From: Dictyostelium discoideum | Lineage: Eukaryota | Reading direction: 5' to 3' | Assembly: GCA_000004695.1 (NCBI GenBank) | Contig: CM000152.2 | Location: forward strand, 3,584,001 to 3,648,000 | DNA length: 64,000 nt | In this document: positions 24,615 through 61,979 of the stretch, in pieces | Layout: each line of letters starts with the position of its first letter | Position numbering within the stretch: position 1 is the first letter of the stretch | Notes under the pieces: model-generated | Seen by the model: only the letters and a program-made list of their open reading frames with translations | Database searches by the model: none | Told to the model about the DNA's origin: nothing | Program-made: the position numbers and the translations under genes

Positions 24615-26770
24615 ATTTCTGAAATCATTGGTTTTATACGTCAATGTTGTACTTGGTCCCTGGACGAACTCCTGTAGTATTTTTATTATTTGATTTTACA
24701 TTAACTTTGAATTCTTTGTCACTTGTCAATAAATTCTTACCAGAAACTGTGATATGACCTCCACAAGTAAGTGTTTTATTATCTTTATTTGTTATATGAT
24801 AAATGACAGGAGGTAATGTTAAATAAAAGAATGAATCCATATAATTACCATCTACAGTAATATTAATTGGGCCATTTTTATATGAATCCAATATTTTAAT
24901 AGTTAATTGATGATCTTTTAATTCTAGAATTTCTGATGAAATATCACTACCATTTAAATAAACTTTAATTAATGATGTTGAATTACCAAAATTATTACCA
25001 TGTAATTCAATATTAGTTCCATCATCTGAAATTGTACGATTCTCAACTTCAGGTGGTGCATATGAGAATTGATCACTGACTGTCTCTGAGTTTAATTTGA
25101 ATATAAATTGTTTATTAATACCAGTGCCATATGGTGTTGGACATGTTGTTTTATAGTAACTAGAATTTGATGATGGTATTGAACATAGTGAGGCTGATGA
25201 TGAATCACCAACAGTAATACTTGGTGCTGGTGAACTAATTGTACAATCCATATAAAATATTTCAATATTTAATATTCCATTTGATACTGTTGGTCTATTG
25301 GTTACATTTACTGATAATGATGCAGAAATTGAAAGTGTGTTTGCGGTAATATTAGAACGAGTGAAATTACTATTAAATGATCTACATCTTAAATGAGGTA
25401 ATTCAAATGTTAAACTCTTTTCATCAGATGATACATTAAATTTGCTAATGTTTGTATTATTAATTCCATCACCTATAATTGAATGGATGATTCGTTATTT
25501 GTACCAAGATTTGTACCAATTAATGTAACGATACCATTTGAATATGACCCACTTGATAATGTTGGAATATTATATGTAAATAATACACCATTAGGACTTG
25601 TTGAATCACAACCACCGAAATTAACTTTAACCGGTAAGTTTTTACCACCCAGTTCATTTTTTTCTTATTTACATTCCAATTCAGTTGGTGTTGATATAAT
25701 AAATGTACATTGTTTATCACCAATTATAATTGATGGTGTCAAAGATGAATTTAAAGTCGAAGATAGTTTTTCACCTTTAATTGTTACAATACCATCTAAA
25801 CGATTTGATAATGATGATATTGATGTTATAATTGCTGGGAAACAATGATTATAATTCTTTTCAATTGAGACACCATTTACGGTAATACTAACAGACATTG
25901 GGCCAGGCGCAACTCTATTAATGTTACTCACTTGAATTTGTGTATGATTTACTGAAATAATAAAATTTAGTTGAGTAATACCATCAAAATAAACCGTAAC
26001 CAACTTTTTATTTGTAAAGAAGTTATCACCATTAATTGTTATTATTTGTTTCAATGAGTCAAAAACGGTACTTGATATTTTAGGTGATACGTATGAAAAT
26101 GGTACTTTAAATACACCAGTTTCATCATAGTACAACCTAAAAGTTCCAGATCCTGGTGGAAATATTACAGTAATATTATTTAGAGTAGATCCATCAGAGA
26201 AATTACCTTTAACAACCAAAGGTTTAGAAGTATCAATGGAATTTAGAAGGAAATTAGGACCACCAAATAATCTTAAATATGAGCCAGTAATGACCCTATC
26301 TTCACCAGATGTTTTGGTTTTTTACTATATTTCAAATTGGATGCTTTTGGATAATATATTAAAGGCGAAACATCAAATGTACAATCCTCAACAGTATTTG
26401 ATATATCTCTAGCACATATCTTACTGTCTATACTACCCCATAATCTTGAGAATGGTTCATCTTAATGGAATAAACAATGCTCTCTCCATCAACTAGGGTA
26501 CAATTGAAATAATTTGGTGCCATTTCAGTTCTGGGTTCTTTTTCGTTTTTATACAAAATTAAACGGGTAGAATATGGGAGATTACTATTAAAAATAAATG
26601 TAAATGATTTATCATCATATATTACATCTAATAAAAAAAATTAATTACATAAACAAATTATTATAAATAATTAAAAATTTAATGATAATACCTATTGGTG
26701 ATGGACGATACATTGAATATCCTGATTTAAAGAACAAAAATAAAATCAGTAATATTATTTTCTGTTCCAT
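24615..26770 (-). pseudogene. tgrC-like pseudogene: 3' truncated with multiple frameshifts. The exon-1 signal peptide and intron are retained.
   Basis: Fragments 24634..25251 and 25665..26219 align to the intact paralogue 46672..49406. Exon 1 ([27 protein letters not shown] plus gtaagtat) lies at about 26696..26770. Confidence 0.8.
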
Positions 26771-26926
26771 TTTTATCAATAATTTTTTTTATTTTGAACT
26801 TGGCTTTGTCAATAATTTTTATAAAAGAAAATTAAAAAAGAGAAATTTAATTATTTTAGGAAATTTTAATTTTAATTAAATAAATAGATAAAAAAAGATA
26901 AAAAAAAATTAATAAATGTAGAAAAA

Positions 26927-26961
<35 letters not shown>

Positions 26962-27194
26962 ATAAATATATAAATTAAAAAAACAAAATAAAATAAAAAA
27001 ATAAATAATAATAATGAAAAAAAACCATAAAATTCTAAAAAGAGGCTATCTGGTGAATGAGTTTGAGTGTGGTGTTTCATTTATATGAAAAGGGAGTGGT
27101 TTTTTTTGTTGAATGGGGTATTTTTTTTTATGTTAAACCCCTTTTTCTAAAAATAAAAAATGTTTTTTTATGTAAATTTTTTATTAGGAAGTGT

Positions 27195-28120
27195 GAATTA
27201 TATAATGAAACAGTTGTCAATGTAAAAATGGATACGGTTGGAAGAAAATATTATTTAAATCCACTCGAGTTTCCTTACAAGAATCTGCTATGCGATTTAA
27301 ATATTTTATTTAAATTCACACCAGAAATCCCATAATTCTCAAATATACCCACTACAGGTGGAGAATTCGGGTTCACCTTCAACTTTCCTTGCAACTATAA
27401 GCGAACCGCCAAATCAATATATAAAACAATATATAAAGAAACATCTATTTTAAATCTCAGTTTCGATACAAGCAAAAATCAGTTCGTTACTTACTTGGAT
27501 CCAGGGTGTGGTCCTTTATATTTAATTAGTGATAATATCACCATTTTCAGTACAACAATTGAAAGTGGTGCCATACCCAATGTACCAATTCTCGATGATG
27601 ATAAAGGTATTTTAACTATTCAAGGTAGTAATCTCTACAACACGTCAATTAAAATTTATTTCAACTAACATTGTGAAAGACACCAACCCTATTGGTACAA
27701 TAGATGCTTCCCATTCTTCTGTCACATTCTCAGTTGAAGAATTTTTAACTCCAAATAATTGGACAATTGAAGTCTCAATATGTGGCTCATTTTATAAAAG
27801 CTATTCCTACCCATATGGATTACCGGTTCTCACTAAAATGGAAGGGGGTACTTAATGATAATGGTGGTAATATGGTATTTACTGGAAAGCATTTAAGACC
27901 AAAACCAATATTGACAAAAAGAAAACTGCAACATTGGAAGAACCTGGATTTTTTATTGAAAATAATAATACCATTTTTATATTCCTACCAAATAATACTC
28001 AACCTGGTTTTATGAACCTTGTTGTTGGTGACGGTGGTCGTGAAATATTTACATCTCCATGATATAATTATCGCTCCAACTATTACTGCTGGCCAAACCT
28101 TCAAATCAAGTGGTAATAAA
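27195..28120 (+). pseudogene. tgrB-like pseudogene: signal peptide lost, frameshifts and stops, internal deletion
   Basis: Aligns to exon 1 and exon 2 of 49930..52846 (..VVNVKMDTVGRKYYLNPLEFPYKNLLCDLNI..). It is divergent from the tgrC-like pseudogene, with the conserved promoter motif between them. Confidence 0.7.
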
Positions 28121-28419
28121 TGGTTAAATAAATAATAAAAAAAAAAAAAAAAATATAATCCAGGTTTAATTAATTTTAAAACAAATTATTTATTCCATCC
28201 ATTTTTTTTATTATTTTATTAGTATAGATAAATAGAACACTCAAAAAATTAACAAAATGATATAAAAAATAAAAAGAAATGAAGGTGACCACTTTATTTT
28301 TAAATTTTTAAATTTTTTTTTTATTTTTTTTTTTTTATATATATTTAATTATATTTCTATAAATATATATATGAAAAATATAAATAAAATGATTTTATTT
28401 ATTTATTGAAGTATAAAAA

Positions 28420-29130
28420 AATATATGAGAATGTGTTTGGTGGTAATAGTGAGGGTTTTCTTTTTTTTTCTTTCAAAAATAAAACGACACTAGAGAATGA
28501 ATACAATTTTAGTATTTTTTGTTTTAAAAAATGAAAAGACACAGCACATTTGGTGTGTATTGGGTGTGTGTTTTTGTTATTGTTATGAAAAGACAAACAT
28601 AAAAATGCCATACAAATTTGTTTTTAGAAGTGGGTGTGGTGGTAAGTGGGTTTTTTATATGTATTTATATTCATATAATTTATTGATTATAAAAAAAATA
28701 TTCCAATGTGTTTAGTGGTAATAGTGGGAGTTTTCTTTTTTTTCTTTCAAAAATGAAACGACACAAGAGAGTGGGTTTAGTTGTGCAATTTTGTTTAAAA
28801 AATGAAAAGACAAAAAATAAAAATTACATACAAATTAGATGTATAGAAGTGGGTGTGGCGGTAAGTGTGAGTTTTTTATTTGTATTTATAATTTATTGAT
28901 ATAAAAAAAATATATGATTATTTGTTTGGTGGTAATAGTGAGGATTTTCTTTTTTTTTGTTACAAAAATGAAACGACACTAGAGAATGAATACAATTTTA
29001 GTATTTATTATTTTAAAAAATGAAAAGACACAACACATTTAGTGTTTGTGGAATGTGGGTTTTTTTATTATCTGTATTTTTTTTCTTTCAAAAAAGAAAC
29101 GACACTACACATTTGTTGTATGTATTTTAT
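28420..29130. repeat. Tandem array of about 3.5 units, period about 250 bp, of the hairpin-repeat family (plus orientation)
   Basis: The motif ..gtgtttggtggtaatagtgag..caaaaatgaaacgacac..aaaaaatgaaaagacacaacacatttggtgtg recurs at about 28425, 28705 and 28925. A partial unit lies at 29090..29130. Confidence 0.65.
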
Positions 29131-29814
29131 TATCTAGATAATATTTATTTTATATTATAAATCTAAAGAAATGAACTCTAAATAAAAATTAATAGAGTAT
29201 ATGTGTTTGGGGTGAATAATATAATTGTTTTTTATTTTATTTGAATGGGTACTTGTGTTGTTTTTTATTTTTTTATTGATAAAAATAGATACTATGAGAT
29301 TAATTTTATTTATTTTTTTTTTTTAATTTTTTTTTTTTATTTTTTTTATATATTAATAAAATTATCTAACTATTTATTTATTATTTTTTATTTTGGACTA
29401 TAGATTTTTTTTTTTTTGGGAAAAATAAGAATTTAAAAAAAAGAAAAAAAGAAAACAAAATAAATTAATAAAATGAAAAAAATAAATAATAACTAAAACA
29501 GCTAAAACTAAATTAAATAATATATTATATAAATAATAATTATAAATAACAACCCAACTAAATCTAGTTAGATTTATTTTTGATTGTTTTTTTTTTTAGG
29601 GGTTTATTGCCATTCTTTAAAATTTCTATTTATTTTTTAAAAAATTAAAATAAAAAAAAAATATCTTGGGACGAGCAACACTGGTATTAGCATGGTAAAC
29701 CTAATGTATTTTCAAACTCTCATATTTTTGTTCTATAACAATGGAAACATAGAAATATTTTTATGTAGGTTCCATCCGAATTTTATTTACTTAATTTCTG
29801 TATTATTTATTTAT

Positions 29815-33046: not shown

Positions 33047-33481
33047 TCATACCAGCTGGAGGAAGCGAATATAGACGTAAATTAAGTGGTGTCGCTGAGC
33101 CAAGGGAAAGCACTTTGCAATAGCAGATTTACCGGTAGAGTCAACACAAATGAATGAACAATATGCACTGGTAACCCTGGTTGGAATGGTAGTTGATGTC
33201 CAAGTGAACCCGAGCATCTTATCTGCGTATCCACCGGTGTTTGCTGGTAATGTGAGTGTGGAGAAATATATTGTGACTTGACCTTTCGATCTATTGTACG
33301 CGAAAATGGCACTTAAACCTGGAATTGTTGCGATTGGGGTTGTGTTGTTAATTGATGATATCACATGTACAGTCAAAGATATTTGATGGTATGAGAAGTT
33401 ATCGGAACCAAAAACCTTCCCCGATCGATTTATGATTCTTCCATTGTCTTGTAAAATTAAATCTCCAAATATAGATGTCAT
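33047..33481 (-). CDS. Island paralogue family member P1, 144 aa
   Basis: The N-terminus MTSIFGDLILQDNGRIINRSGK is shared with 34324..34740 and 34907..35353. The protein is beta-rich and has no signal peptide. Confidence 0.5.
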   Translation of the reverse strand: MTSIFGDLILQDNGRIINRSGKVFGSDNFSYHQISLTVHVISSINNTTPIATIPGLSAIFAYNRSKGQVTIYFSTLTLPANTGGYADKMLGFTWTSTTIPTRVTSAYCSFICVDSTGKSAIAKCFPLAQRHHLIYVYIRFLQLV

Positions 33482-34323: not shown

Positions 34324-34740
34324 ATGACATCTATACATTGTAATTTAGTTTTGCAAGACGGTGGTAGGATCATTAGTAAAGACGGCAGTGCGCAAGCACA
34401 GGGGATCGGCAACAGCGAAATCATCCCATTCACAACAGACGCATTCATAACGTCAACTTTTCCTGACAACCCACCAGTTGGAAGTCCAAAGAGAAAGACA
34501 ATTCAGTGTATCGCTTACAAATACAGAAAAGGACCATCGTCATACACTATTAGGGTCTCAATCCCATCTATTTCTTTTCCAATGGGAGACTATGATGGAC
34601 ACTGTTTGGGTTTTATCCAGCCATCGGCATCATTGGGGATCAAAGTGCGTATTACATACTTTGGGTTCTTTCAATTTACAACTGATACTGGCACAGTAAA
34701 AACAACTAAAAACAGTTCAATTATGAACTATGGGGGATGA
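34324..34740 (+). CDS. Island paralogue family member P2, 138 aa
   Basis: Starts MTSIHCNLVLQDGGRIISKDGS. About 42% GC, with runs such as gcgcaagcacaggggatcggcaacagcg. Confidence 0.5.
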   Translation: MTSIHCNLVLQDGGRIISKDGSAQAQGIGNSEIIPFTTDAFITSTFPDNPPVGSPKRKTIQCIAYKYRKGPSSYTIRVSIPSISFPMGDYDGHCLGFIQPSASLGIKVRITYFGFFQFTTDTGTVKTTKNSSIMNYGG

Positions 34741-34906: not shown

Positions 34907-35353
34907 ATGACATCTATATTTGGAGATTTAATTTTACAAGATGGAGCTAAAATAATTCGTAGGGACGGTTCATCTTTAATTCCATCTAGAACCATCAGAA
35001 ATGCCACCATTAATATTGGAACCATGACCAATACCTCAACACCTGGTAGTTTGATAACTATACAGGCTGAAGCAACATTTATCATAGACGACGATAAGTA
35101 CGTCGAAATGCTCATAGGTATGAAATTTATACCAACTTCAACACACAATGGGAGAGTCATGGTAATCTCTGGCCTTCCATTAGATTTGGTATCAACAAAA
35201 CCACCAAACGGATCATGTATGGTTACAGGTGACGATAACTATGCAATTATTACAATGGCACATTTCGATAGATGGGTAACTGGTGTACCACAAGCACAGT
35301 TAGCATCAACAATTCCATTATCCGGGTTACCTACAACAACCCATCTTCTTTAA
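34907..35353 (+). CDS. Island paralogue family member P3, 148 aa
   Basis: Starts MTSIFGDLILQDGAKIIRRDGS. It shares the internal motif MLIGMKFIPTST with P1 (MLGFTWTSTT). Confidence 0.5.
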   Translation: MTSIFGDLILQDGAKIIRRDGSSLIPSRTIRNATINIGTMTNTSTPGSLITIQAEATFIIDDDKYVEMLIGMKFIPTSTHNGRVMVISGLPLDLVSTKPPNGSCMVTGDDNYAIITMAHFDRWVTGVPQAQLASTIPLSGLPTTTHLL

Positions 35354-42749: not shown

Positions 42750-43245
42750 ATGTTATTAGAAATTCTCAACAGTTTAGTATCATTTTTTAGTAAGATATTC
42801 TCATTATTTGAAGGTAAAAAAGATATAAGAATAATAATGATTGGACTTGACCGTGTAGGTAATCCAATACTTTTATATAAATTAAAAGTAGGAGATGTTG
42901 TTTCAACCATTCCATCCATTGGATTCAATGTTGAACTATTGAATATAAAAATTTAAATGATAGTTTAGGATGTAGGTGGCCAGTATTAAATTGGCACATT
43001 ACAGAAACACTATAATCATGGTTCAAATGAAATCATCTTTGTAGTGGATAGAACTAATTGTGAAAGAATTAATCAAGTTAATGAAGAAGTTGATAATCTT
43101 TAATTCAAGATGAATTAAAAGGTAAATTCTTTAAATTTAAATTCAATTAAAGATAGAAAATGGTATATTCAACCATGTAGTGCCATTAAATCAAATGATA
43201 TATATGAAGGATTTGATTGGATTGCAAATTCACTCAATAATGAAT
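42750..43245 (+). pseudogene. ARF-family GTPase pseudogene (internal stops and an internal deletion)
   Basis: Aligns to 2248..2814. GKST is lost, stop codons follow NIKI, and a central block is deleted. The 5' leader (aaaat)n is conserved. Confidence 0.8.
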
Positions 43246-43559: not shown

Positions 43560-44700
43560 TTTTTAATAAAAAAAAAAATAATTTCTTACAATGAGTTGAT
43601 TTTAATTTGATTTCAAAAAAGAGAATAGAAATTTGAAAATATGAAGATGGTTCTACTATTGATAAAAGTGATGGTGATGATTGAGTGAAGAAGCAGGACA
43701 ACTGTGATAAGCAGTCATTGATTCTGTATCATCGATTGCCAATAAAACTTGATGTTGTCTTTTGTTTGATTTACATTCTTTACTTCATCACCATCATCTT
43801 GTTCCATTTCTTGATAATCTAAAACTACTTTTTTTTTATCAAGATTTGTGAGATTTTCTAATTATTCCTTTGTGAATAGTTCTTTTTGATTTAAATCATT
43901 CAATTTATCATCTTCGCCATCTTGTTGTTGATCTTTTTCAAGTTTTCTTTTTCTTTTTCTTTTTCTTTTTCTTTTTCTTTTTCTTTTTCTTTTTCTTTTT
44001 GTTTTTGTTTAAATCGATCTTGTTTAAATTTTGATGTTGATATCTTTTTATTTTCGGTTGTTGTTAAGAAGAACGGTTCTTCCACTCATTACTTGAATCA
44101 CCCATTGATATATATTGATATGGATCAACTTGTTTTTGTTTCTTTGGTGGTCGTTGTGCGCTTGATTGTGGTGGTGGTAGTGGTTGAAATTTAAGAATTT
44201 TTAAGGGAACCTGTTTGTATCATTTTCAGATGGAATTGACTGGGCCATAAAACTATTGTTATCAGCATTATCTAGATTATATTAATCTTTCATGTATTCA
44301 TAAGTGTTGAAAATTTTGATTTACTAGCAGGTGTTTTATCTTTTAACGCCTAATGATTGCCCTGAATCTTTTGGTGTTCATCTTGTTCATTGTAGTTAGT
44401 GATGTTTGATCTTCTTCTGGTTGTTCTTTCTCTGGTTAATCAACTTCTAAATTGACTGAATCAATTTTTGTTGTGGATTTGATCAATTGGTACATTCTTT
44501 GGTGCTTGTAAACTACACCATCAGCTTTTAAGGCTGGTTGATAAGAGATAACCCATTTCCTCAACTCTTGGGATTAATCCATTTACAAAATTACTAATGT
44601 TATAATTCTTCTGAATGATTCAACATTTATTCTTCTGTTAAATCATTCATAATATCAAAATCTTTACGCATCTATTTATATATTTATAGAAAAAAAAAAA
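43560..44700 (-). pseudogene. Degenerate pseudogene or repeat remnant, many stops
   Basis: 43480..43600 is similar to 9640..9760 (..attggttagtttatatttttt..cttacaatgag). 43900..44700 is similar to the reverse complement of 62300..63100. It contains a (TTTTTC)n run at 43935..43990. Confidence 0.35.
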
Positions 44701-45525
44701 TTTATAATTATTAATGTTATATTTGAAAAAAAAAAAAAATTATTAAAAAAATAAAAAAAAACTTACTTTATCATTTAAACCAGTTCTGGAATTGAACAAA
44801 TTGTTTGTTTTACACTTCTCATTTTAACTTCAGATTTAAGTAATGGTTGAGTTAAATCGGCGATTTTGTATATTGGATATTTCTTTTGGTAGTATTCCAA
44901 AAATATAGTTGTACCCTCAATAATATCGGTTACTTTTGAATTTGGACCTTTACATAATATAACGAGTTACAACAACTGGTGTTTAATAAGTTTTACCCAT
45001 TAATGAATATTCCATTGATCTCATAAACTATTTTGATTTTTAAAAAGTATTAAAAAAAAATAAAATAAAATAAAAAGATGAATATGGTTATACAAAAATT
45101 AAAAACTTACAGATTTAATTAAAATATAAAAGAGTTGAAATTATTGATTTATCATTGACTTGTATCATTTATCTCTTGCTATTTACGCTGGTGAGAAATT
45201 GGTTGATTTTGGTTTCTGGAACAGTTGCAATATCTTGGATATCATCATTATCATCTCCAACTAAATCTTTTCTTGAAATTCTTACATCTTGTGGAGCAGC
45301 CGAGGTCTAAACATAAACTGTAAAAAAAAAAAATTGAAATAATAAAAATGAAAATATATATAAACAAATTCTCAATAATAAATAAATAAATAAATAAAAG
45401 CCTTGTATATAGTAAAAAAAAAAAATGAAAAAAAAAAAAAAAAAAAAAAAAAATTTTTTATTTATATAAAAAAAAAACCATATATTTTCACATTTTAAAA
45501 TTTTTTTTGGCGCTTTTTTTTTTCA

Positions 45526-45561
<36 letters not shown>

Positions 45562-45990
45562 AGGTTAATGAAATTTCATGTTCAACACTTTTTAATATAC
45601 CACTAGATAACCAATATAAAATTGAATTAACAATAATAAATCAACGACTGAAAAAAAAAAAATGCAAATGCACTTATACGTTTTAGGTTGTAGTTTGCTT
45701 ATATGCAAAGTCAGTAAAATTTATCAGTGTTCTTTATTTAGTATAAAAGTTGTAATTAATAATTAATAATTAATAATTAATAATATATATATATATATTA
45801 TAATATATTAATCAATTTCATTCAACCAAACCAAAACAATCGCCCAAAGAGGTGGTAATGGTCCTCATTCATTAGTTATTAAAGAAATAAAAAATAAAAT
45901 AATAAAATAAAACAAATAAATATAATTAAAATAATAACAAAATAATAAAATAAAAAGCAATAAAATAAAATAAAATAAATTAAAAATAAA

Positions 45991-46492
45991 ATTTTATCAG
46001 AATTTTCAACAGTTTAGCATCATTTTTCTGTAAGATATTCTCATTAGTTGAAGGTAAACCAATACTTTTATATAAATACAAAATAGGTGATGTTGTTTCA
46101 ACCATTCCAACCATTGGATTCAATGTTGAACTATTGAATATTAAAATTTATCGATGACAGTTTGGGATGTAGGTAGTGAGTATTAAATTGACACATTATA
46201 GAAACACTATTACCATGGTTCAAATGCAATCATCTTTGTAGTGGATAGTACTGATCGTGAAAGAATTAGCCAAGTTAAAGAAGAAATTGATAATCTTTTA
46301 ACTCAAGATGAAATAAAAGGTATACAAATATTAATATTTGCAAATAAACAAGATATGGATAATGCAATGAATACTGCAGAAATGTGAACTCTGTAAATTT
46401 AAATTCAATTAAGGATAGGGATCAACCATGCAGTGCCATTAAATCACCACACGGTATATATGAAGGATTTGATTGGGTACCCAATAATTAAT
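45991..46492 (+). pseudogene. ARF-family GTPase pseudogene (ATG lost, deletion of the P-loop region, stops)
   Basis: Aligns to 2248..2814. The start ATG is mutated to ATT and GLDGAGKST is deleted. Confidence 0.8.
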
Positions 46493-46671
46493 AAATAAAT
46501 GAAATAAACAAAATAAATAAATAAAAGCCTTGTATATATAGTAAAAATAAAATAAAGATATAATAAAAAATTTTAATTTAACATTTATTTATTTATTTAT
46601 TTATTTTATTTTTAGTTAAGTTTTAATTTTACACATATGTGATTTGTGATTTTAAATTTACATTTTTTTTT

Positions 46672-49406
46672 TTAAAATTTTTTACCTATAAATTTTTTCA
46701 CACGAAAAGGTATTTTAAAGTAATAGGCAAGAGCACCGATAGCAAGAGCACCACCAACACTACCAATTGTAGAACCTATTATTAAACCATTTGATGGTTT
46801 GGATGATTTAGTTTCAACATCTCTTTGACTAACGTTTGGTGATGGAGATAATTTAATTTCTTCAATTGTGACATTATATTGAAATGATGTTGAGTTAAAT
46901 AGGAGATATAATACTCCTGATGTATTTTTCACACTTGAACCGGAATGGCATGATAAACAATCAGTATTACTATTTGTAATATTAGTTTCACTTGAATCAC
47001 TATCATCAAGTATTTCATTTGGTGATAAACTACATTCTAAATTACATGAAAGAGGAACAGTTTCTGATGAAACTGTTAAGCTTGCATTGAGAATATCTGT
47101 AAAACTATAACCACGAATTATTGCTAAAATACCTTTTTCAATTTTATTTTCAATGGTTGGAATTTCTGAAATCATTGGTTTTATATAGGTCAATGTTGTA
47201 CTTGGTCCTGAACGAACTCCAATGAATGTTGTAACAAAGAGTGAACTCTCTCTACTTTCATCTCTAACTATTAATATCTTTTCATCTTGAGCAAATACTG
47301 TGGTATTTTTATTATTTGATTTTACATTAACTTTGAATTCTTTGTCACTTGTCAATAAATTCTTACCAGAAACTGTGATAAGACCTCCACAAGCAAGTGT
47401 TTTATTATCTTTATTTGTTATACGATAAATGACAGGAGGTAATGTTAAATAAAATAATGAATCCATATAATTACCATCTACAGTAATATTAATTGGGCCA
47501 TTTTCATATGAATCCAATATTTTAATAGTTAATTGATGATCTTCTAATTCTTGAATTTCTGATGAAATGTCACTACCATTTAAATAAACTTTAATTAATG
47601 ATGTTGAATTACCAAAATTATTACCGTGTAATTCAATATTAGTTCCATCATCAGAAATTGTACGATTCTCAACTTCTGGTGGTGCATATGAGAATTGATC
47701 ACTGACTGTCTCTGAGTTTAATTTGAATATAAATTGTTTATTAATACCAGTACCGTATGGTGTTGGACATGTTGTTTCATAGTAACTAGAATTTGATGAT
47801 GGTATTGAACATGGTGAGGCTGATGATGAATCACCAACAGTAATACTTGGTGCTGATGAACTAATTGTACAATCCATATAATATATTTCAATATTTAATA
47901 TTCCATTTGATACTGTTGGTCTATTAATTACATTTACTGATAATGATGCTGAAATTGAAAGTGTTTTTGCGGTAATACCAGAACGAGTGAAATTAATATT
48001 AAATGATCTACATCTTAAATGAGGTAATTCAAATGTTACACTCTTTTCATCAGATGATGATACATTAAATTGGCTAATGTTTGTATTTTTAATTCCATCA
48101 CCATATAATTGAATGGATGATTCGTTATTTGTACCAAGATTTGTACCAATTAATGTAACGATACCATTAGAATATGATCCACTTGATAATGTCGGAATAT
48201 TATATGTAAATGATACACCATTAGGACTTGTTGAATCACAACCACCGAAATTAACGTTAACTGGTAAGTTTTTACCACCCAATTCATTTGCATCCAATTT
48301 ACATTCCAATTCAGTTGTTGTTGATTTAATAAATTTACATACTTTATCACCAATTGTAATTGATGGTGTCAATGATGAATTTAAAGTTGAAGATAATTTT
48401 TCACCTTTAATTGTAACAATACCATCTAAATGATTTGATACTGATGATATTGATGTTATTATTGCTGGGAAACAATGAATATAATTCTTTTCTATTGAGA
48501 CCTCATCTACGGTAATATTAACAGACATTGGACCGGGATCAACTCTATTATAGTTATTCACTTGAATTTGTTTATGATTTACTGAAATGATAAAATTGGG
48601 TTGGTCAATACCATCAAAAGAAACCTTAACCAAGTCTTTATCTGTAAAGAAGTTATCACCATTAATTGTTATTATTTGTTTTGATGAGTCTGAGACAGAG
48701 CTTGATATTATAGGCGATTCGTATGAAAATGGTACAGGATTATCCCCAGTTTCATCATAGTACAACCTAAATTTTCCGGATCCTGGTGGAAATGTTACAG
48801 TAATATTATTACAGTCAAAAGATGGATCAGAGAAATTACCTTTAACAACAAAAGGTTTATTTACATCAATGGAATTAATAAGGAAATTAGGACCACCAAA
48901 TAATCTTAAATATGAGCCAGTAATGACTATATCTTCACCAGATGTTTTTGGTTTTTTACTATATTTCAAATTGTATACTTTTGGATAATATACTAAACCC
49001 GAAGCATCAAATGTACAATCCTCAACAGTATTTGATTTATCTCTAACACATACCTTACTGTCTATACTACCCCATAATCTTGAGAATGGTTCATCTGAAT
49101 GGAATAAACAATGTCTCTCTCCATCAACTAGAGAACAATTGAAATAATTTGGTGCCATTTCAGTTCTGGGTTCTTTTTCGTTTTTATACAAAATTAAACG
49201 GGTAGAATATGGGAGATTACTATTAAAAATTAATGTAAATGATTTATCATCATATATTGCATCTAATAAAAAAAATTAATTACATAAACAAATTATTATA
49301 AAGAATTAAAAATTTAATGATACTTACCTATTGGTGTTGGAGGATTCATTGAATATCCTGATATAAAGAACAAAAATAAAATCAGTAATATTATTTTCTT
49401 TTCCAT
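46672..49406 (-). CDS. tgrC1: Tgr-family, tgrC-like type I membrane glycoprotein, 889 aa. Structure is join(49328..49406,46672..49262). It is the partner of the divergent tgrB-like gene.
   Basis: Exon 1 encodes [27 protein letters not shown] (GTAAGT donor). Exon 2 is an 839-aa open frame with IPT/TIG-like repeats, the [15 protein letters not shown], and the 14-aa tail [14 protein letters not shown]. The symbol is tentative. It is chosen because this is the only intact divergent B/C pair in the window, and that architecture is known for D. discoideum tgrB1/tgrC1. Confidence 0.75.
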
Positions 49407-49597
49407 TTTTATCAATGATTTTTTTTATTTTGAATTTGGCTTTTTAATAATTTTTATAAAAGAAAATTAAAAAAGAGAAATTTAATTATTTTAGGAAAAT
49501 TTAATTTTTATTAAATAGATAAAAAAAGATTAAAAAAAAAATTAATTTATAATAAATGTAGAAAAAAAAAATAAAAAAATAAAAAAATAAAAAAATA

Positions 49598-49628
<31 letters not shown>

Positions 49629-49929
49629 TAAATAAATATATAAATTAAAAAAACAAAATAAAATAAAAAAATAAATAATAATAATGAAAAAAAACCATAA
49701 AATTCTAAAAATAGAGGCTATCTGGTGAATGAGCTTGAGTGTGGTATTTCATTTATTTGAAAAGGGGTATTTTTTTTTTTGTTAAACCCCTTTTTCTAAA
49801 AATAAAAAAAAAATTTTATTTGGTAGGGGCAAATCATTTTTTTTTTTTATTATTAATAAAAATAAATTTTTTTTTATTTTTTTTATTTTTATTATTGTTT
49901 AAATTTATAATGCTACAAGTTTTACAAAA
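49407..49929. promoter_or_regulatory. Bidirectional intergenic promoter region shared by the divergent tgrC-like and tgrB-like genes. It contains a conserved GC-richer motif at 49688..49800.
   Basis: There are 523 bp between the two start codons. The motif attctaaaaatagaggctatctggtgaatgagcttgagtgtggt..gttaaacccctttttctaaaaata is conserved at 27019..27155 and 56750..56850 upstream of the other tgrB-like copies. Confidence 0.5.
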
Positions 49930-52441
49930 ATGAAAGTAATATATATTTATTTGTTATTATTATTAGTTTGTAAATTTTTATTTGTTAAATCAAGTTGCTC
50001 TTTAAAAGTTGGAAAAATAGAATGTACAAAAGAATTAGAAACGTTTTTATTATATAATGAAACAGTTGTCAATGTAAAAATGGATACAAATGGAGTAAAA
50101 TATTATTTTAATGCACTCGAGTTTCCTTACAAGAATCTGTTATGCGATTTAAATATTGATATTAAATTCACACCAGAAATCCCATCATTCCCAAATATAC
50201 CTACAACAGGTGGAGACTTCGGGTTCACCTTCAACTTTCCTTGCGACTATAGGCGAAGAGTCAAACGAATAGAAATAGAAAGAACTATATTATCTCTCAG
50301 TTTTGATACAAGCAAAAATCAGTTCGTTACTTACTTGAATCCAGGGTGTGGTCCTTTCAATATTAGTAGTAGTGGGATTCAGATTTTGAGTACAACTTAT
50401 GAAACTGGTGCCATACCCAATGTACCAATTCTCGATGATGATAAAGGTATTTTAACTATTCAAGGTAGTAATCTCTACAATACATCAATTAAAATTTATT
50501 CAAATAACATTCTTAAAGACACCAACCCTAGTGGTGCACTAGATGCTTCCCATTCTTCTGTCACATTCTCCGCTGAAGAATTTTTAACCCCAAATAATTG
50601 GACAATTGAAGTCTCAATATGTGGCTCATTTTATAAGAGCTATTCCTTCCCATATTTTCCAAAGCTCGATAAAATGGAGGGGGTACTTAATGATAATGGT
50701 GGTAATATGGTATTTACTGGAAAGCATTTAAGACCAAAACACAATGTTACTGGTACTTTTGGTAATAAAACTATTGAGTGTCTCACATCCAATTCTTCAA
50801 AAAGCATAACATGTACCATTCCAAGTCGTAAAAACTATGGTTTTCTTGGTTATGATATTCCTGTAACAATTACTGTAAGTAGGATACAATATATATATTA
50901 TAAATACATATTGTTATCATATAACATTACTAATTATTTTTTAAATAATATTTTATTAATAGATTGACGGTGAATATAAATCAAATACAATTAAAATATC
51001 TTATGATCTTCCATTGATTCAAAGTGTTTCACAAAGGGGTAATTCACAGATTTTCGATGTGACCGGTGTGTATTTTTCTGGTGTTAAGAATATGACTGTA
51101 ATTACTGGTAAAAACATGAAAACTGATATTATCCAAAAGAAAACTGCAACATTGGAAGAACCTGGATTTTTTATTGAAAGTAATTATACCATTTTTATAT
51201 TCCTACCAAATAATACTCAACCTGGTTTTATGAACCTTGTTGTTGGTGACGGTGGTAGTGAAACATTTACATCTCCAAGATATAATTTCAAGATCACTCC
51301 AACTATTACTGCTGGCCAAACCTTCAACTCAACTACAAGTGGTAATGATTTAGAAATTAAAGGCATCTTTATGAGAACTGTTGATTCTGATGGTAGAGAT
51401 GTTCCACTAACAGTCAATAGTGGGTCTGGTGGTCTTGTTTGCAATCCATTAAAAGATGGTGATGGTTTATTATTCACCTGTGTTCTAGGACCTGGTTTCG
51501 GTTCAAGCCATACAATGAACGTTTACTATAATCTTATACCCATTGGATCATTTACCGTTAGCTACAATCCTCCATACCTTGGCACAAGTGAACAAGAAAA
51601 AGATGGGACCATTAAAATGAATGGTAAGGACTTAGGGGAATCTGTTAAGGATTCAATTATGACCGTTGTTTATTCTGATGGTAATACAGTAAATGGAACC
51701 GTAATTAAAAGTAGTCATACTTCTCTTATATTTAGGTATCCTATAGGCAATAGAAACACTGCAAGCTATATATTCCAACTTGGTGATCAAAAGAGTAATA
51801 AGGCAGGTCCATTCACTTTGAAACCTATTATTGAAAACACTGATCCTGCTGTACCATGTGGCGGTGGAGTGGTTACTATCAATGGTCATTACTTTTTTAA
51901 CTATACCAAAGATACCACAACTATTACCATTGGTAAAGTACCATGTAATATTTCTTCAATTAGTGAAACAACCATTGAATGTGTAATTGTACCAAATCTT
52001 AGATCTCTTTCTCCATACTACACATCTGGCACTAAACCATTAGTAATCAGTAGCTCAAATCCTGGTACTGAAAAGGTCTACCAATTGACACCTGCAGGTC
52101 TAAACTATAAGTTTGCACCACCAACCATTACAAATACATCTGCAATTGATCAAACCGCTTTAATTACTATATATGGTACATCATTTGGTGATGCAAATCT
52201 TGAAATTCTAATCAATGATAAACCATGTACACAACCTGAAATTAACATTCACACCTATTCTAGTTTAACCTGTAATGTAACCAACTATGATGAAATGAAA
52301 ATATATAACTACTCTAATACTAAATTCAATATTAGTATCTCTGTTGATGGTCAGTACTTTATTGCTGATATTTTCCAATTTAAATGTAAGTTACATACAA
52401 TCATATCATTCTCTATCTTATTATTTATTACTATTGCTGTA

Positions 52442-52479
<38 letters not shown>

Positions 52480-52846
52480 TTATTATATTACTGTATATTA
52501 TAAAGATGAATCAGGAATTATTTATAGTGAAAACAAATCAACAGGATTTCCAAATGAGATGTATCTCGGTTTTGTTGTTTTTGTAATATTTATAGCATTA
52601 ATTTCATTTGCCGCTAAAAATCAGATTGAAAAATATTTTGAAGAGAGAAAATCCAGAAAAGCATTTAGATCACTTGATAATTTACGTCTAAAACTTCGTC
52701 AGAAACATGCTACTGAAATCGCCAAACATTACACATTTGGTGAACAAAGTGCTCCAAAGCCAGATAAAAGTACCTTCTATGATATAAGAAAGAAATTATC
52801 TAGACTTCCACTCATCAGACGTTGTTTCAAAGAACATACTGATTAA
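49930..52846 (+). CDS. tgrB1: Tgr-family, tgrB-like type I membrane protein with IPT/TIG repeats, 902 aa, 3 exons: join(49930..50874,50963..52385,52506..52846)
   Basis: The signal peptide MKVIYIYLLLLLVCKFLFVKSSCS is present. GTAAGT donors sit at 50875 and 52386, and AG acceptors at 50961-50962 and 52504-52505, with all phases consistent (0 and 1). Exon 3 encodes the TM LGFVVFVIFIALISFAA and a 75-aa cytoplasmic tail. IPT-like motifs such as VPCGGGVVTINGHYF occur. The symbol is tentative, as for tgrC1. Confidence 0.75.
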
Positions 52847-53020
52847 ATAATAAACCAGCAGTAATAAATAATTTCATCCAAATCCAATAATATCCAATTT
52901 TAATTTAATTCAAAATCAAACCAATATGTAATCTATATCTTCTTTCCATCTCTTTTATACTATTATAATTTTACTTCATTCATAATATATTTAAATAAAT
53001 AAATAAATAAAAAAAAAAAA

Positions 53021-53063
<43 letters not shown>

Positions 53064-53269
53064 AAATAGTTACTTAATTATTTTGTGTTGCATTGTTGAA
53101 AACATTGAAAAAACATTCAATTTCCTCAACTTTCATTCTACAATAGTTTCATACTATTTAATATATAAAATTATTGGGTGCAGGATAAGTTTATCAATTT
53201 ATTTATATATTTGTTCTGTTTTTGGCAGAAATAAAAATAAAAATAATGTGAGCGAAAATATGAAAATTT

Positions 53270-53300
<31 letters not shown>

Positions 53301-53770
53301 ATTTGGCACAGAAAAATAGAAGACTCAAAAATAATAAAAAAAAAATATTCAATATTATAATAAATTTATTTGAATAAAAAAAACGTTATTAATTTTTTTT
53401 TATTATTTTTCATTTATTTTTTTTAATCTTGGTCAAAAAAAAAAAGCATTTGGTGATCCATGGAACAATTTTTGCAAAATCAAAAAAAAAAAAAAATAAA
53501 AATATAAAAAAAGATATTTATTTTAAAAAAAAAATATCCAACAAAAAAACAAAAATTGTAATTTTTTTTTTTATTTTTTTTGATATACTATTGTTATGGG
53601 TAAAAATATTGTGTTTATTTGTTTTTTTTTTTTTTTTTTTTTTTTTTGATATACTATGGGTAAAAATTTGAAAAGGTACACTGTTTTTTACTATGTTTTT
53701 TATAACTTTTTTTTTTTTTCACCCATTTTTTTTTATATGTTATTAATGTTTTTTGACTTTTTTTTTTTTT

Positions 53771-53955
53771 CCCATCACACTGTTTGATAATGTTTGTTTT
53801 ATTTGGTAGTGTTTTTATTTTTTTCACTTAATTTATTTAGTTATGTTTGTAATATTTGTTTTTTCCCATCACACTGTTTGATAATGTTTGTTTTATTTGA
53901 TAGTGTTTTTATTTTTTTCACTTAATTTATTTAGTTATGTTTGTAATATTTGTTT
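53771..53955. repeat. Tandem duplication, 2 x about 92 bp
   Basis: cccatcacactgtttgataatgtttgttttatttg(g/a)tagtgtttttatttttttcacttaatttatttagttatgtttgtaatatttgtttttt occurs twice in tandem. Confidence 0.85.
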
Positions 53956-54435
53956 TTTTTTTTCTCAAACTATTAATAATTATACTAATAACCATTACAA
54001 AATAAACTATGAAAGTTAACAATTTTTTTTTTTTTTATCAATTTGTTCGCTTTCTCAATGCATTTTGAGCTTGCAGAGATATAATTTATGAAAAAAAAAA
54101 AATAGAATTTTCAATGGGCTCAAAAATAATATTTTCCAGTGTGACCAGAACATATATCTTTTTTCTTTTTTTTTTTTTTTTTGTCATCTCATTTTCCAAC
54201 TCACCACTGTTTAATTTAAAAATAAATTTATTTTTAAAAAAAAAAAATAAAAATAAAATAAAAAATAAAAATAAAATAAAAAAATGAATAATTGAAAAAA
54301 AAAAAAAATAAAATGAAAAATGAATAATTGAAAAAAAAAAAAAATAAAAACCCCATTCAATTTTTTTTTTCTCTTTTTATATTTATTATATTACCTCTCT
54401 TTAAATCTATAATTAAATAATAGATTTACAAAAAT

Positions 54436-54828
54436 ATGAATGCAGAATTATTTCAATTTCCAAATAATAAAAAAAATTTAAAAAGAGCTCATGATGACAG
54501 TGATGAAGCCTTTTTCAATAAAAAGAATGATAATAGTTTAAAAGAATTCAGAACTGATGTTGTTTTTCAAGATTTTCAAGTAAACAATTATAATTATAAT
54601 TTTAATCAAACTCAACAAAACTTTTATTCAATGGGTAGCATCCAAAGCCACACACCAAGTATTGTAGTTCCAAATCCATCAATTTCAAAGCCTCCACAAC
54701 TAATAAATCAAAATAATATTAACATTCAATCATCAATTCCAAATATTAATATAACTAGTAATATTAACCAAAACAATTTAAACGTTTTAAATAGAAACCC
54801 AAAAAATTGTTTAAATCATTTTTTTTGA
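54436..54828 (+). CDS. Possible small Asn-rich protein gene, 130 aa
   Basis: ATG ORF with a partly unique N-terminus (MNAELFQFPNNKKNLKRAHDDSDEAFF). Low complexity otherwise. Confidence 0.25.
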   Translation: MNAELFQFPNNKKNLKRAHDDSDEAFFNKKNDNSLKEFRTDVVFQDFQVNNYNYNFNQTQQNFYSMGSIQSHTPSIVVPNPSISKPPQLINQNNINIQSSIPNINITSNINQNNLNVLNRNPKNCLNHFF

Positions 54829-55181
54829 AAATAAAAAAAAATTAAAAAATTAAAAATTAAAAAATAAAATAAAATAAATTTAATTAATAAATCAGAGTCT
54901 AAACATTTTTTTAATTAATTATTTAAAATTAATAAATTAAATGAAGAAAATAAAATAAATTAATTCTATTTTATTTTAATTATTAAAGTAATAATTAATT
55001 AATAATTAAAAATATTATATTACAATTTTTTCAATCTTTTTACAATTTTTAAAATTTTCTTTATTTTTTATTTTTTATATATAATTATAGATGTTATGAA
55101 ACAATAAAATAATTATTTTTATTTTTTTTTATTTTTTTTTTTTAAAAATTAAAATAATTGAATGAATGTGTTTGTGGTAAG

Positions 55182-55214
<33 letters not shown>

Positions 55215-55261
55215 ATAATTTATCAGATATACCTGGGTCAACATTACAACCAACAGTTCTA

Positions 55262-56100
55262 TCAATTAAAAATGCCATGTTGTGTGCAAAAAAAAAAAAA
55301 AAGTATTAATATTAAATATCTATAAATATTATTAAAATTTAAAATGATTATAATAATTAGCAGATTTTTTAAATCGAAATAAAGGTGACCCATTTGGAAA
55401 GTGAAGAATTGAAATAAATCAGCAGCCATTTGATGTTCATCCAATAATACGTGGTAATGAGTTGGATTAATTGAAGCTTTGAAGGCAACTCTGGGAAACC
55501 AAAAAGAAATCATACCAGCGGCATATCTATTGATGTTATTTCCCAAGATTTTCTAATACGGTTTGAGATCTAACTATTTTGGTAGTTGAATCACTTAATA
55601 ACATGGTACCGACTTCTGTTGAGCACTGAAACCTTTCCAAACTTCTAAAAAGTGTTTTGAAATTCTCTTTTACCAACTGGTGTTTAATAATTTTTACCCA
55701 TTAATGAATATCCTATTGATCTCATAAACTATTTTAATTTTTAAAAAATATTATAAAAAAAAGATTAATATGAAAAAAAAAAAAATGGAATAAAATAAAA
55801 TAATATAAAAAAATTAAAAACTTACAGATTTAGTTAAAATATTAACGAGTTGAGAGTTATTTGATTTATCATTAATTTGTATCTTTTATCTCTTGCTACT
55901 TGTGGTGGACCAAAATCAATTCAAAATCAACCAATTTCTTAACAGTGCGAATAAGACAAAAAGTATTTTCCAATACTTTCTCGAACCATGCAATATCTTG
56001 GATATCATCACTGTCATCTCTAAACCTTTTCTTGAAATTCTTAAAGCATCCTGTGATTAAGGTGAAAATAAAAAAAATAAAAAGGAAAAATAAAATTTTT
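55262..56100 (-). pseudogene. Degenerate gene remnant, paralogous to 44700..45310
   Basis: 55640..56060 aligns with 44940..45300 (..ccaactggtgtttaata..tttacccattaatgaatat..cattgatctcataaactatttt..). It has stops in all frames apart from the 94-aa piece at 55262..55546. Confidence 0.3.
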
Positions 56101-56962
56101 TTTTTTTTTTTTTTTTTTCGACAAACGGAGCGCCAAAAATACAAAATGATTTGAAAAATAAAAATGTAATCATTCTAATTATATTTAAAAAAAAAAAAAA
56201 TTGGGTTAAAACAAAGGAACGGAATATATTTCTGATTAATTTTGTTTTAATATTTATAAACTGTTATAAAAAAAAAAATAAAAAAAATAAAAATAAACTT
56301 TTCTTTTTTTTTTCTTGTTATTTTAAAATAAAAGAAATTGCTAGAGTATAAAAATAATAGAAAGGTGTTTTAAATCATTATAAAACAAGAATATATAAAA
56401 ACAAATAAAAATGATAGGACTACAGTCATTCATTAGTTTTATAATTTAATAATAAACAATCATTTATTTATTTGTTTAATAATTTATTTATTTAAATAGT
56501 ACAGCTTATTCACAAATACCCAAACATCGATAATCTTAATCTACAATAATAATTATTAGAATAAAATAATTTAATAAATGATCAAACTGTTAGTCAATTA
56601 CCATCACCACCACCACCACCACCAACTCGTGATTCCAACACTATCTCACCAAACTCAACCATCTATTCTAACTTAACCATAAAACACCAGAAAAAAAAAA
56701 AATTTTAACAAATAAATTGAAAAAAAAAAAAAAAAAAAAATTATAATGAAATTCTAAAAATTGAGGCTATCTGGTGAATTGGCTTGGGTGTGGTGTATAA
56801 TTTATATGAAAGGTGTGTTTTTTTTTGTTGAACCCCTATTTCTAAAATAGAAATGCTTTTTTTTTTGTAAATAATATTTTTTTTTTTTTTTTTTATTTTA
56901 ACCTCAAATTAATTTTTTTTTTTTTATTATCGTTTTTATTTTAATATTATAATTTTAACAAA

Positions 56963-58047
56963 ATGAAAGTTTTATATATTTATATATTGTTATTGGTTTG
57001 TAAATTTTTATTTGTGAAATCAAGTTGCTCTTTAAAATATGAAAAAATAGAATGTACAAATGAATTTGAAACATTTGAATTATATAATGGTACTGTTGTC
57101 AATGTAAAAATGGATACAGTTGGAGGGAGATATTATTTTAATCCACTAAAGTTTCCTTACAAGAATTTGCTATGCGATTTAAATATTTTAATTAAATTCA
57201 CACCAGAAATCCCATCATTCCCAAATATACCCACAACAGGTGGAGAATTCGGGTTCACCTTCAACTTTCCTTGCACCTATAAGCGAACAGTCAAAGAAAT
57301 AGGAACAGAAAGAACTTTATTATCTCTCAGTTTTGATACAAGCAAAAATCAGTTCGTTACTTACTTGGATCCAGGGTGTGGTGCTTTAAATTTGTTTTTT
57401 GAAAATATCCAGATTTTGAATTCAACTTTTGAAACTGGTGCCATACCCAATGTACCAATTCTCGATGATGATAAAGGTATTTTAACTATTCAAGGTCGTA
57501 ATCTCTACAACACTTCAATTAAAATTTATTCAACTAACATTCTGAAAGACACCAACCCTATTGGTGCACTAGATACTTCCCATTCTTCTGTCACATTCTC
57601 CGCTGAAGAATTTTTAACTCCAAATAATTGGACAATTGAAGTCTCAATATGTGGCTCATTTTATAAAAGCTATTCCTACCCATATTTACCGGTGCTCATC
57701 AAAATGGAGGGGGCACTTAATGATAATGGTTGTAATATGGTATTTACTGGAAAGCATTTAAGACCAAAACACAATGTTACTGGTACTTTTGGTAATAAAA
57801 CTATTGAGTGTCTCACAACCAATTCTTCAAAAAGCATAACATGTACCATTCCAAGTCTTAAAAGTTATGGTTCTCTTGGTTATGATATTCCTGTAACAAT
57901 TACTGTAAGTAGGATACAATATATATTATAAATACATATTGTTATCATATAACCAATTACTAATTATTTTTTAAATAATATTTTATTTAGATTGATGGAG
58001 AATACAAATCAAATACAATTAAAATATCATATGATATTCCAAGGTAT
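56963..58047 (+). pseudogene. tgrB-like gene, truncated. Exon 1, intron 1 and the first 19 codons of exon 2 remain, then the match ends in a stop.
   Basis: Exon 1 at 56963..57904 is 314 codons and about 85% identical to 49930..50874. A GTAAGT intron lies at 57905..57990. After ..ISYDIP the alignment ends and a stop follows. Confidence 0.75.
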
Positions 58048-58249
58048 ACTTTTAAAATAAAAAAATAAAGAAATATAATACTCTTTTTTTTTTTTTAATT
58101 ATTACTTTATTTTTAAAATTTCTACTTTTTTTTTTTTTTTTTTTTATTAAAATCTTTACGTTAATAATTTAAAAAAAAAAATTATAAAAAATAAATAAAT
58201 AAATAAATATTATTATTTATTTATTTATTTTTTATAATTTAAATCCGTT

Positions 58250-58450
58250 TGAACATAGGGTCAGCATAAACCCCACTACCACACCCTCACTGCTGGAGAG
58301 GAGATGGTAGGAGGCGTTATGGTCTATATGATTACTCAGTAAAATAAGCAGGTATTCTACGTTTTATGGTGTATAATCGAATAGACTGATGTCGATGATC
58401 AAGTGACCTTGATTATGTTCGAAGCCACGTAACACAATATCATGGTCTGC
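58250..58450. other. About 200-bp GC-richer (about 45% GC) unique fragment of unknown origin, downstream of the truncated tgrB-like copy
   Basis: Sequence gtttgaacatagggtcagcataaaccccactaccacaccctcactgctggagaggagatgg... It resembles neither the rRNA motifs I can recall nor any repeat family in this window. Confidence 0.3.
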
Positions 58451-58829
58451 CACAAAATCAACAAAAACAATAACAAATAATTATAAAATTTGATTTGATT
58501 AATAATAAATTTTAAAAAAAAAAAAAAAAAATTTTTACACTTCAACCAAATCTAATTTTATAAAAAATAAAATAAATTCAATTATTTTTAATAAGAATTT
58601 AGTATAGATAAATATACACAAAATGATATTAAAATTTAAAAAAAAAAAATGAATGTAATCATTCTATTTTTTTATTAATTTTTTTTTTTTTTATTTATAT
58701 CGATATAAACAATTTTGAAAACAAAGGAATGGAATATGGTTCTGATTAATTTTTTTTGTTTTAATATTAATTTTTTATTCATAAAAAAAAAAAAAAATAA
58801 AAAAAAAATAAAGATAAAAATAAACTTTT

Positions 58830-58874
<45 letters not shown>

Positions 58875-59331: not shown

Positions 59332-59893
<562 letters not shown>

Positions 59894-60260: not shown

Positions 60261-61240
60261 CTTCTTCTTCTTCTTCTTCTTCTTCTTCTTCTTCTTCTTC
60301 TTCTTCTTCTTCTTCTTCTTCTTTGCCAATAATATATTGTGTTAATGATATACCCTTAAGACTTATTGAATTACAACCACCGAAATTAACGTCAGGTGAT
60401 ACTATTTCACAAAATTCATTTACATCTAATTGACATTTCAATTGAGTTGTTTTTGAATTTATAAATGTACATTGTCTATCACAAATTGTAATAGATGGGA
60501 TAAATGATGAATTTAAAGTCGAAGATAATCTAGAACCATTAATTGTTATAATACCACCTAAATCATTTGGAAATAATGATACTGAATTTACTATTGCTGG
60601 GAAACAATAGGTATAATTCTTTTCATTTGAGACACCATTTACAGTAATACTAACAGATATTAGACCAGGATCAACTATATCATAGTTATACACTTGAATT
60701 AGTTTATGTTTTACTGAAATAACAAAATCAGGTTGATTAATACCATCAAATAAAACCGTAACCAGCTTTTTATTTGTATGGAAGTTATCACCACTAATTA
60801 CTATATCTTTTGATGGGTGTAAATAAATACTTGATATTTTAGGTGATCCATATTAAAATGGTAAAGGATAATACCCGTCTTGGTAAAGGACTACCCGAAA
60901 TTCTCGAGAATGGTTCATCTGCATAGAATAAACAATATCTCTTATTATATATATAGATGACAATCAAAATAATTTGGTACCATTTCATATCTGGGTGTTG
61001 TTTCGTTTTCATACAAAATGAAACGGGTAAAATATGGGGAATCACCGTTAAAAATTAATATAAATGATGTTATATCATATTCTACTTCTAATATAAAAAA
61101 TTAATTAATTTCATAAACACATTATTTTAATAAATAATTAAAAAATGATACTTACCAATTGGATTTGAAAAATCCATTGAATACCTTGATTTAAAAATTG
61201 AGAATAAAAATAAAATCAGTAATGAAATTTTCTTTTCCAT
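60106..61240 (-). pseudogene. tgrC-like pseudogene. The central roughly 1.5 kb is replaced by (TTC)n, i.e. poly-Glu on the coding strand. The N-terminal region is frameshifted, and the signal-peptide exon and intron are retained.
   Basis: The 195-aa ORF joins an IPT region, E31, the TM FVFIGIASSCSIIGCFFIF, and the tail RIISRAKKYLRKNF. Exon 1 ([29 protein letters not shown] plus gtaagtatc) lies at about 61153..61240. Confidence 0.75.
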
Positions 61241-61979
61241 TTTTATTAATAATTATTAAAAAAAGAAAATTAAATTAGAGAAATAATAATTAATATTGAG
61301 TAATTAATTAATTTTTTTTTTTTTTAAAAAAATAATAACAGCATGGGTTGGTAAAAAACTGTGTGAGATTAGTTGGCATGTGGAAAAAAAAAATATATAA
61401 TAATAAAACACAAAGAATTTCAAAAAAAAAATAAAAATATATAAAAAATAATAAATGTATGAAATAAAAAAAATGTTTTTTTTTTTTTTTTTTTTTAATG
61501 ATTAATTTTTTATTATTAATTTATTTACCTTATATATTTTATTAGTTATAAATACAAAAAGTATTTTTTAAAAATTATAATAATATTCATTTTAATAATA
61601 ACAATTTTTTTTTTTTTTTTTAATTTATTATTATTGTCATTTTCATTTTCTTTATTTTCATTATTATTATGATTTATTATAATAAATCATAGAAATAATG
61701 TAAATAGAGATATTCAAAATGACAACAATAATAAAAACGTTTTTCACACCAAAAAGAATTAAATTTTTTTTTTTTCTTTTTTTTTTTTTCTTTTTTTTTT
61801 TTTCTTTTTTTTTCAAAAACCTTCAAATTTTTTTTTTTTTTTTCATTTTCCATCATCTTTATAATTAATAATAAATGTAATTTTTCTTTAAAAATAATTC
61901 ATTTTTTATTTTTATTTTTTTTATTTTATTTTTTAAACCGTACATTTTATTAACTGTTATTAATTAATTATAAATTACT

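Follow-up and report, generated by a model that had tools for sequence, protein, structure and literature searches.

The tgrC1-tgrB1 allorecognition locus in a Dictyostelium discoideum window, with its shared promoter and duplicated neighbours

The stretch analysed here, 64,000 nucleotides (nt) of Dictyostelium discoideum DNA (the window), contains at 46672-52846 two genes of the tgr family that are transcribed away from each other across a common spacer. The minus-strand gene, tgrC1, has a coding sequence of 2670 nt for 889 amino acids (aa), running from an ATG at 49406 to a stop codon that ends at 46672; the plus-strand gene, tgrB1, has one of 2709 nt in three exons, in frame, for 902 aa, from an ATG at 49930 to a stop codon that ends at 52846 (Table 1). 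An intact divergent pair with a spacer of 523 base pairs (bp) had been proposed earlier from the letters of the DNA (the original prediction), and this proved exact: both models could be rebuilt in frame, each with zero internal stops and zero frameshifts, and their start codons enclose 49407-49929. No other tgrB/tgrC pair in the 64-kb window has both genes intact. Gene structures, identity, topology, domains, arrangement and intactness relative to the paralogues were all read from the sequence.

Both products are deposited proteins. An exact-sequence look-up among ~15 billion sequences, which returns an entry only if it is identical from the first residue to the last, gave Tiger protein B1 of AX4 for the 902-aa plus-strand product (TGRB1_DICDI, Q54V07, XP_641124.1, EAL67146.1) and Tiger protein C1 of AX4, formerly named LagC and gp150, for the 889-aa minus-strand product (TGRC1_DICDI, P42523, XP_641123.1, EAL67067.1), each 100% identical across all 902 and 889 aa. 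Because both conceptual proteins equal full-length deposited proteins exactly, the match is not one of chance, and since the look-up demands end-to-end identity, the splice junctions match the deposited models; those predicted for the plus-strand gene, 50874/50963 and 52385/52506, yield the protein identical to Q54V07. The published TgrB1 residues G275, S845 and L846 were found at their published positions (PMC11088635). CM142509.1, from an independent D. discoideum assembly, is annotated alike: an 889-aa minus-strand gene and a 902-aa plus-strand gene lie 523 bp apart, with an Arf-like gene and a gene for 339 aa as neighbours. This second assembly (GCA_054883475.1) aligns with positions 43919-58860 of the window over 14.9 kb at 99.8% identity, the differences amounting to 2 mismatches and 6 gap openings. 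Its tgrB1 span is shorter by 6 bp, a difference that may consist of homopolymer-length changes in introns or spacers.

Several related copies lie in the same window (3080-5805, 24672-28117 and 56963-58068), and the pair might on that account be a paralogous duplicate (tgrB2/tgrC2-C5 or the pseudogene pair) and not the functional tgrB1/tgrC1. The full-length, 100% identity of the products at 46672-52846 to Tiger proteins C1 and B1 contradicts this, and the other copies, which are distinct sequences, match different entries (XP_641091.1, XP_641126.1) or carry frameshifts and deletions. Provided that the database names are correctly attached, the exact look-up rules the duplicate out, and we give it next to no credence. 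We conclude, with near certainty, that the D. discoideum allorecognition (greenbeard) locus tgrC1-tgrB1 occupies 46672-52846, in an AX4-type sequence: what lies here is the known system in every residue, rather than a relative. The prediction had put this forward as the best candidate for the functional tgrB1/tgrC1 pair and had proposed comparison with the annotated proteins, and the return of Q54V07 and P42523 by the look-up bears it out, TgrB1 and TgrC1 themselves being the best hits. Two limits apply to the identification: the junctions are based on deposited protein models and published residue numbering, and trans binding and signalling by the tail are taken from the literature. The sequence itself holds nothing contrary to it.

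TgrB1 and TgrC1 both cross the membrane once, as type I proteins, and their ectodomains are rich in repeats. In a Kyte-Doolittle hydropathy scan, the hydrophobic peaks of each are limited to aa 1-22, in agreement with the predicted N-terminal signal peptides, and to a single C-terminal membrane span (aa ~852-875 in TgrC1, 808-826 in TgrB1). The Pfam family TIG scores 77.7 bits in TgrC1 and 71.5 bits in TgrB1 (cut-off 20.9), and TgrC1 also scores 95.4 bits for Ig_TgrO1, likewise above its curated cut-off. Identity between the two proteins is only ~23%. Both display the traits of the Tgr family (Tiger: transmembrane, IPT/Ig, E-set repeat), namely repeats, a leader and a single span. A sequence search of the PDB with both proteins found no meaningful solved structure for either, which fits the reported lack of close homologues of Tgr proteins beyond dictyostelids (PMC12142906).

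A cytoplasmic tail of substantial length, 76 aa (75 if the end of the span is placed differently), is present in TgrB1 alone. A 75-aa tail encoded by a third exon of its own had been predicted; the long tail stands, but exon 3 also encodes the span and the last ~18 residues of the ectodomain (YESGIIYSENKSTGFPNE). The tail of TgrC1 has the 14 aa expected of the ligand-like partner, and the assignment of the long-tailed gene as receptor-like and of the short-tailed one as ligand-like agrees with the literature, where TgrB1 is the receptor and TgrC1 the ligand (PMC11088635, PMC12142906). The first intron of tgrB1 falls inside the ectodomain as predicted. That of tgrC1 had been placed immediately after the signal sequence; it is near, but lies in codon 27, ~7 residues past the likely signal cleavage site (…ISGYS/MNPP), and its position recurs in the tgrC paralogue at 5720-5653. 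The introns are short, AT-rich and of the GT-AG type, and the GC content of the window is 16-33% in 2-kb bins. Extreme AT content and short, AT-rich GT-AG introns are typical of Dictyostelium. Searches for Rfam families and tRNA genes across all 64 kb gave no hit.

Table 1. Coordinates of the tgrC1-tgrB1 locus and of related features in the window
Feature	Position	Strand	Description
Shared divergent promoter, ATG-to-ATG spacer	49407-49929	.	523 bp
Less-AT-rich island, candidate cis-regulatory element	49700-49805	.	~105 bp; spacer aligned with paralogous counterparts
tgrC1 exon 1	49328-49406	-	79 nt; start codon, signal peptide
tgrC1 intron	49263-49327	-	65 nt, GTAAGT...TTATTAG, phase 1, codon 27
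tgrC1 exon 2	46672-49262	-	Codon 27 to stop; ectodomain with IPT/TIG and TgrO1-like Ig, membrane span, 14-aa tail
tgrB1 exon 1	49930-50874	+	aa 1-315; signal peptide, N-terminal ectodomain including G275
tgrB1 intron 1	50875-50962	+	88 nt, GTAAGT...AATAG, 12.5% GC; position common to tgrB2-like gene
tgrB1 exon 2	50963-52385	+	Ectodomain, IPT/TIG repeats
tgrB1 intron 2	52386-52505	+	120 nt, GTAAGT...AAAG, 13% GC, long T run
tgrB1 exon 3	52506-52846	+	Last ~18 ectodomain residues, membrane span, 76-aa tail with S845 and L846, stop codon
tgrC paralogue	3080-5805	-	Intact, 885 aa, 66% protein identity to TgrC1; exact match XP_641091.1
Decayed divergent tgrC/tgrB pair	24672-26631; 27198-28117	-; +	Frameshifts, deletions; DNA 91% and 87-92% identical to aligned tgrC1 and tgrB1 segments
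tgrB2-like gene	56963-58068	+	339 aa, 85% protein identity; exact match DDB_G0280693/XP_641126.1
tgrC fragment	60331-61240	-	Disrupted
Arf-like GTPase gene	2248-2811	+	Intact, 188 aa; Pfam Arf 236 bits
Arf-like pseudogenes/fragments	24519-24620; 42750-43235; 46005-46482; 59332-59887		Stops and frameshifts

The intergenic region common to tgrB1 and tgrC1 has been described as 524 bp long and as co-regulating both mRNAs (PMC12142906). Within the spacer, the island beginning with AAATTCTAAAAATAGAGGCTATCTGGTGAATGAGCTTGAGTGTGGTATTTCATTTATTTGAAAAGGGGTA and continuing to GTTAAACCCCTTTTTCTAAAAATA / GTTAAACCCCTTTTTC is the least AT-rich part (24-34% GC versus 0-8% in the A/T tracts at 49500-49699), and it lies 125-230 bp from the ATG of tgrB1 and ~300-400 bp from that of tgrC1. 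The pseudogene pair has a copy of it (~27050-27160), as does the DNA upstream of the tgrB2-like gene (~56740-56850); upstream of the paralogue at 3080-5805 the resemblance is only faint. In its two 50-bp windows, the island has 88% and 80% identity to the tgrB2-like copy, and the adjoining coding DNA has 84-90%; that the A/T flanks of the island are less alike is largely due to indel slippage. Since the identity of the island is about that of the coding DNA, conservation alone cannot tell function from recent duplication. A conserved promoter motif had been offered as a sign of co-regulation, and the motif is real in the form of this island, but too much weight was placed on it, its conservation being such as a recent segmental duplication would give. 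That the island is the shared cis-element of tgrB1 and tgrC1 is an inference. A scan of the promoter for inverted repeats gave 38 pairs, nearly all of them noise of the A/T tracts; the sole pair with non-AT bases, GAAAAGGGGT/ACCCCTTTTTC (49747-49768 / 49786-49807), was regarded as insignificant.

Because expression of lagC (tgrC1) needs GBF, as stated in the part of PMC2257962 that cites Iranfar 2006, we scanned for the GBF element KGKGKGK, that is (T/G)G(T/G)G(T/G)G(T/G). The window contains 59 exact sites, and 49407-49929 contains none on either strand; one-mismatch variants occur in the tgrB1/tgrC1 island. GBF-regulated promoters usually carry the element as paired sites. Co-expression of the two genes might depend on GBF binding directly to G-boxes within the island of their common promoter, as the GBF dependence itself, the G/T-rich stretches of the island (TGGTG, GAGTGTGGT, AAAGGGGT) and the three exact KGKGKGK sites at 56785-56818, in the island copy that precedes the tgrB2-like gene, would suggest. 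The absence of exact elements from 49407-49929 argues the other way and, because only one-mismatch variants are present, the dependence could be indirect. Thus, a direct GBF site in the tgrB1/tgrC1 promoter is unproven, and we consider direct binding possible, though on the whole unlikely.

The roles of ligand and receptor, the co-regulation and the downstream signalling are drawn from the literature. The two genes are described as lying head-to-head under one common promoter, with expression highest at ~9 h of development (bioRxiv 10.1101/2025.10.22.684067), and as co-expressed at ~8-12 h, with allele-specific binding in trans and signalling via the tail of TgrB1 (PMC11088635, PMC12142906, bioRxiv 10.1101/2025.10.22.684067). 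In the cytoplasmic domain of TgrB1, S845 is a phosphosite and L846 the site of the activating mutation L846F (PMC11088635), and the pathway interfaces with RapGAPB-RapA (PMC12142906). Diverging tgrB/tgrC pairs with one promoter are also the published criterion for functional loci across species (PMC12745789). The locus encodes two single-pass membrane glycoproteins with IPT/TIG and Ig-like repeats, whose genes are transcribed away from each other out of one intergenic promoter of 523 bp, and because they share that promoter TgrB1 and TgrC1 would appear jointly at the transition from aggregation to mound. TgrC1, with its 14-aa tail, would be the displayed ligand, binding in an allele-specific manner and in trans to the TgrB1 ectodomain of an adjacent cell; the receptor TgrB1 would then signal via its conserved 76-aa tail, with the S845 phosphosite and the L846F site, linked to RapGAPB-RapA. 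Cells with matching pairs would be expected to remain in the aggregate, differentiate and cooperate, and mismatched strains to segregate.

An older view takes TgrB1 and TgrC1 as a purely heterophilic adhesion pair, in which TgrB1 does no receptor signalling. The earliest description of TgrC1/LagC was indeed that of the gp150 adhesion system (PMC2257962), and both ectodomains are built of IPT/TIG and Ig repeats of the adhesion type. However, loss of tgrC1 is bypassed by dominant activating tgrB1 mutations, including the cytoplasmic L846F (PMC11088635, PMC12142906), and the intracellular domain of TgrB1 is nearly invariant while its ectodomain is polymorphic (PMC11088635). Adhesion without signalling is therefore very improbable, and signalling by TgrB1 upon binding of TgrC1 is the reading that we retain. 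In clusters at 90% identity, TgrB1 has 9 members, mostly named wild-isolate tgrB1 alleles, and TgrC1 has only 2; these counts are cluster memberships and no population analysis, and would fit a greater divergence of TgrC1.

The pair was compared with the whole window by tblastn and blastn with a low-complexity filter, and, judging from the matches, the window is a tgrBC cluster with several further copies. The intact tgrC paralogue at 3080-5805 differs from TgrC1 at its C-terminus, which is hydrophobic and leaves practically no cytoplasmic tail, and it has no tgrB partner upstream. In the decayed pair, 24672-28117, the region matching 49810-50033 is lost and both 3' ends are truncated; it is probably the tgrC_ps1/tgrB_ps described in bioRxiv 10.1101/2025.10.22.684067. 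The tgrB2-like gene (56692-58068 with its upstream region) conserves the proximal promoter, exon 1 and intron 1 and meets a stop 25 codons into exon 2, and its 339-aa product is without membrane span or tail. By inference this gene is tgrB2, since it matches the description of tgrB2 as a truncated tgrB without a membrane span (bioRxiv 10.1101/2025.10.22.684067); in UniRef, XP_641126.1 is automatically named 'TgrB1', which could mislead. The tgrC fragment (60331-61472) has 57% protein identity over aa 188-382, a weak N-terminal match, a partly conserved upstream region and an adjoining Arf pseudogene. Full and partial duplicates are reported to arise continually in the tgrBC cluster (PMC12745789).

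An Arf-like copy stands tail-to-tail (convergent) with each tgrC copy, the decayed one at 46005-46482 lying directly 3' of tgrC1. Because of this arrangement, the unit of duplication seems to be an arf-like gene that points towards a convergent tgrC, followed by the promoter and a tgrB that points away. The island could be the one developmental enhancer, acting in both directions, by which expression of ligand and receptor is coupled, in which case the truncated tgrB2-like gene, having retained the island, would yield a co-expressed, secreted fragment of the TgrB ectodomain that could modulate recognition, for instance as a decoy; we regard this proposal as speculative and rather improbable.

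Two further groups of sequences lie away from the pair. Just past the tgrB pseudogene, 28415-29135 holds 3-4 direct repeats of 215-275 bp with G/T-rich boxes, such as GTGGGTGTGGTGGTAAGTGGG, and a conserved stretch, TTTCAAAAATGAAACGACAC; these repeats have no Rfam match. Three paralogous open reading frames of ~140-150 aa, at 33047-33481 (-), 34324-34740 (+) and 34907-35353 (+), occupy the stretch where the GC content of the window is highest (31-33%). They begin MTSI(F/H)(G/C)(D/N)L(I/V)LQD(N/G)G(R/A)(K)II… and match no Pfam family.

The locus matters as the best-characterised kin-recognition (greenbeard) system of a eukaryotic microbe, one that gates the transition to multicellularity; all of this has already appeared in the literature, and both genes have curated entries in the databases. 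The present analysis adds that exon structure, topology and the assignment of ligand and receptor are recoverable from raw sequence alone, and it records the duplication architecture around the pair.

Compared with TgrC1/TgrB1 of D. discoideum AX4, the pair is alike in sequence, head-to-head layout, ~523-524-bp spacer, domains, tails and residues, and no difference was detected. The other members of the cluster (tgrB2, tgrC2-C5 and tgrB_ps/tgrC_ps1) resemble it in family, intron positions, orientation, partly in the island, and in the Arf-like gene downstream of tgrC, but none is identical to TgrB1 or TgrC1: the copy at 56963-58068 is truncated, that at 3080-5805 has no partner, and those at 24672-28117 and 60331-61240 are disrupted. 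Tightly linked, co-inherited and polymorphic genes for a ligand and a receptor, whose match decides acceptance or rejection, are also found at Alr1/Alr2 of Hydractinia and at SRK/SCR of the plant S-locus. With these systems the Tgr pair has in common the logic of a linked pair, but no sequence relationship.

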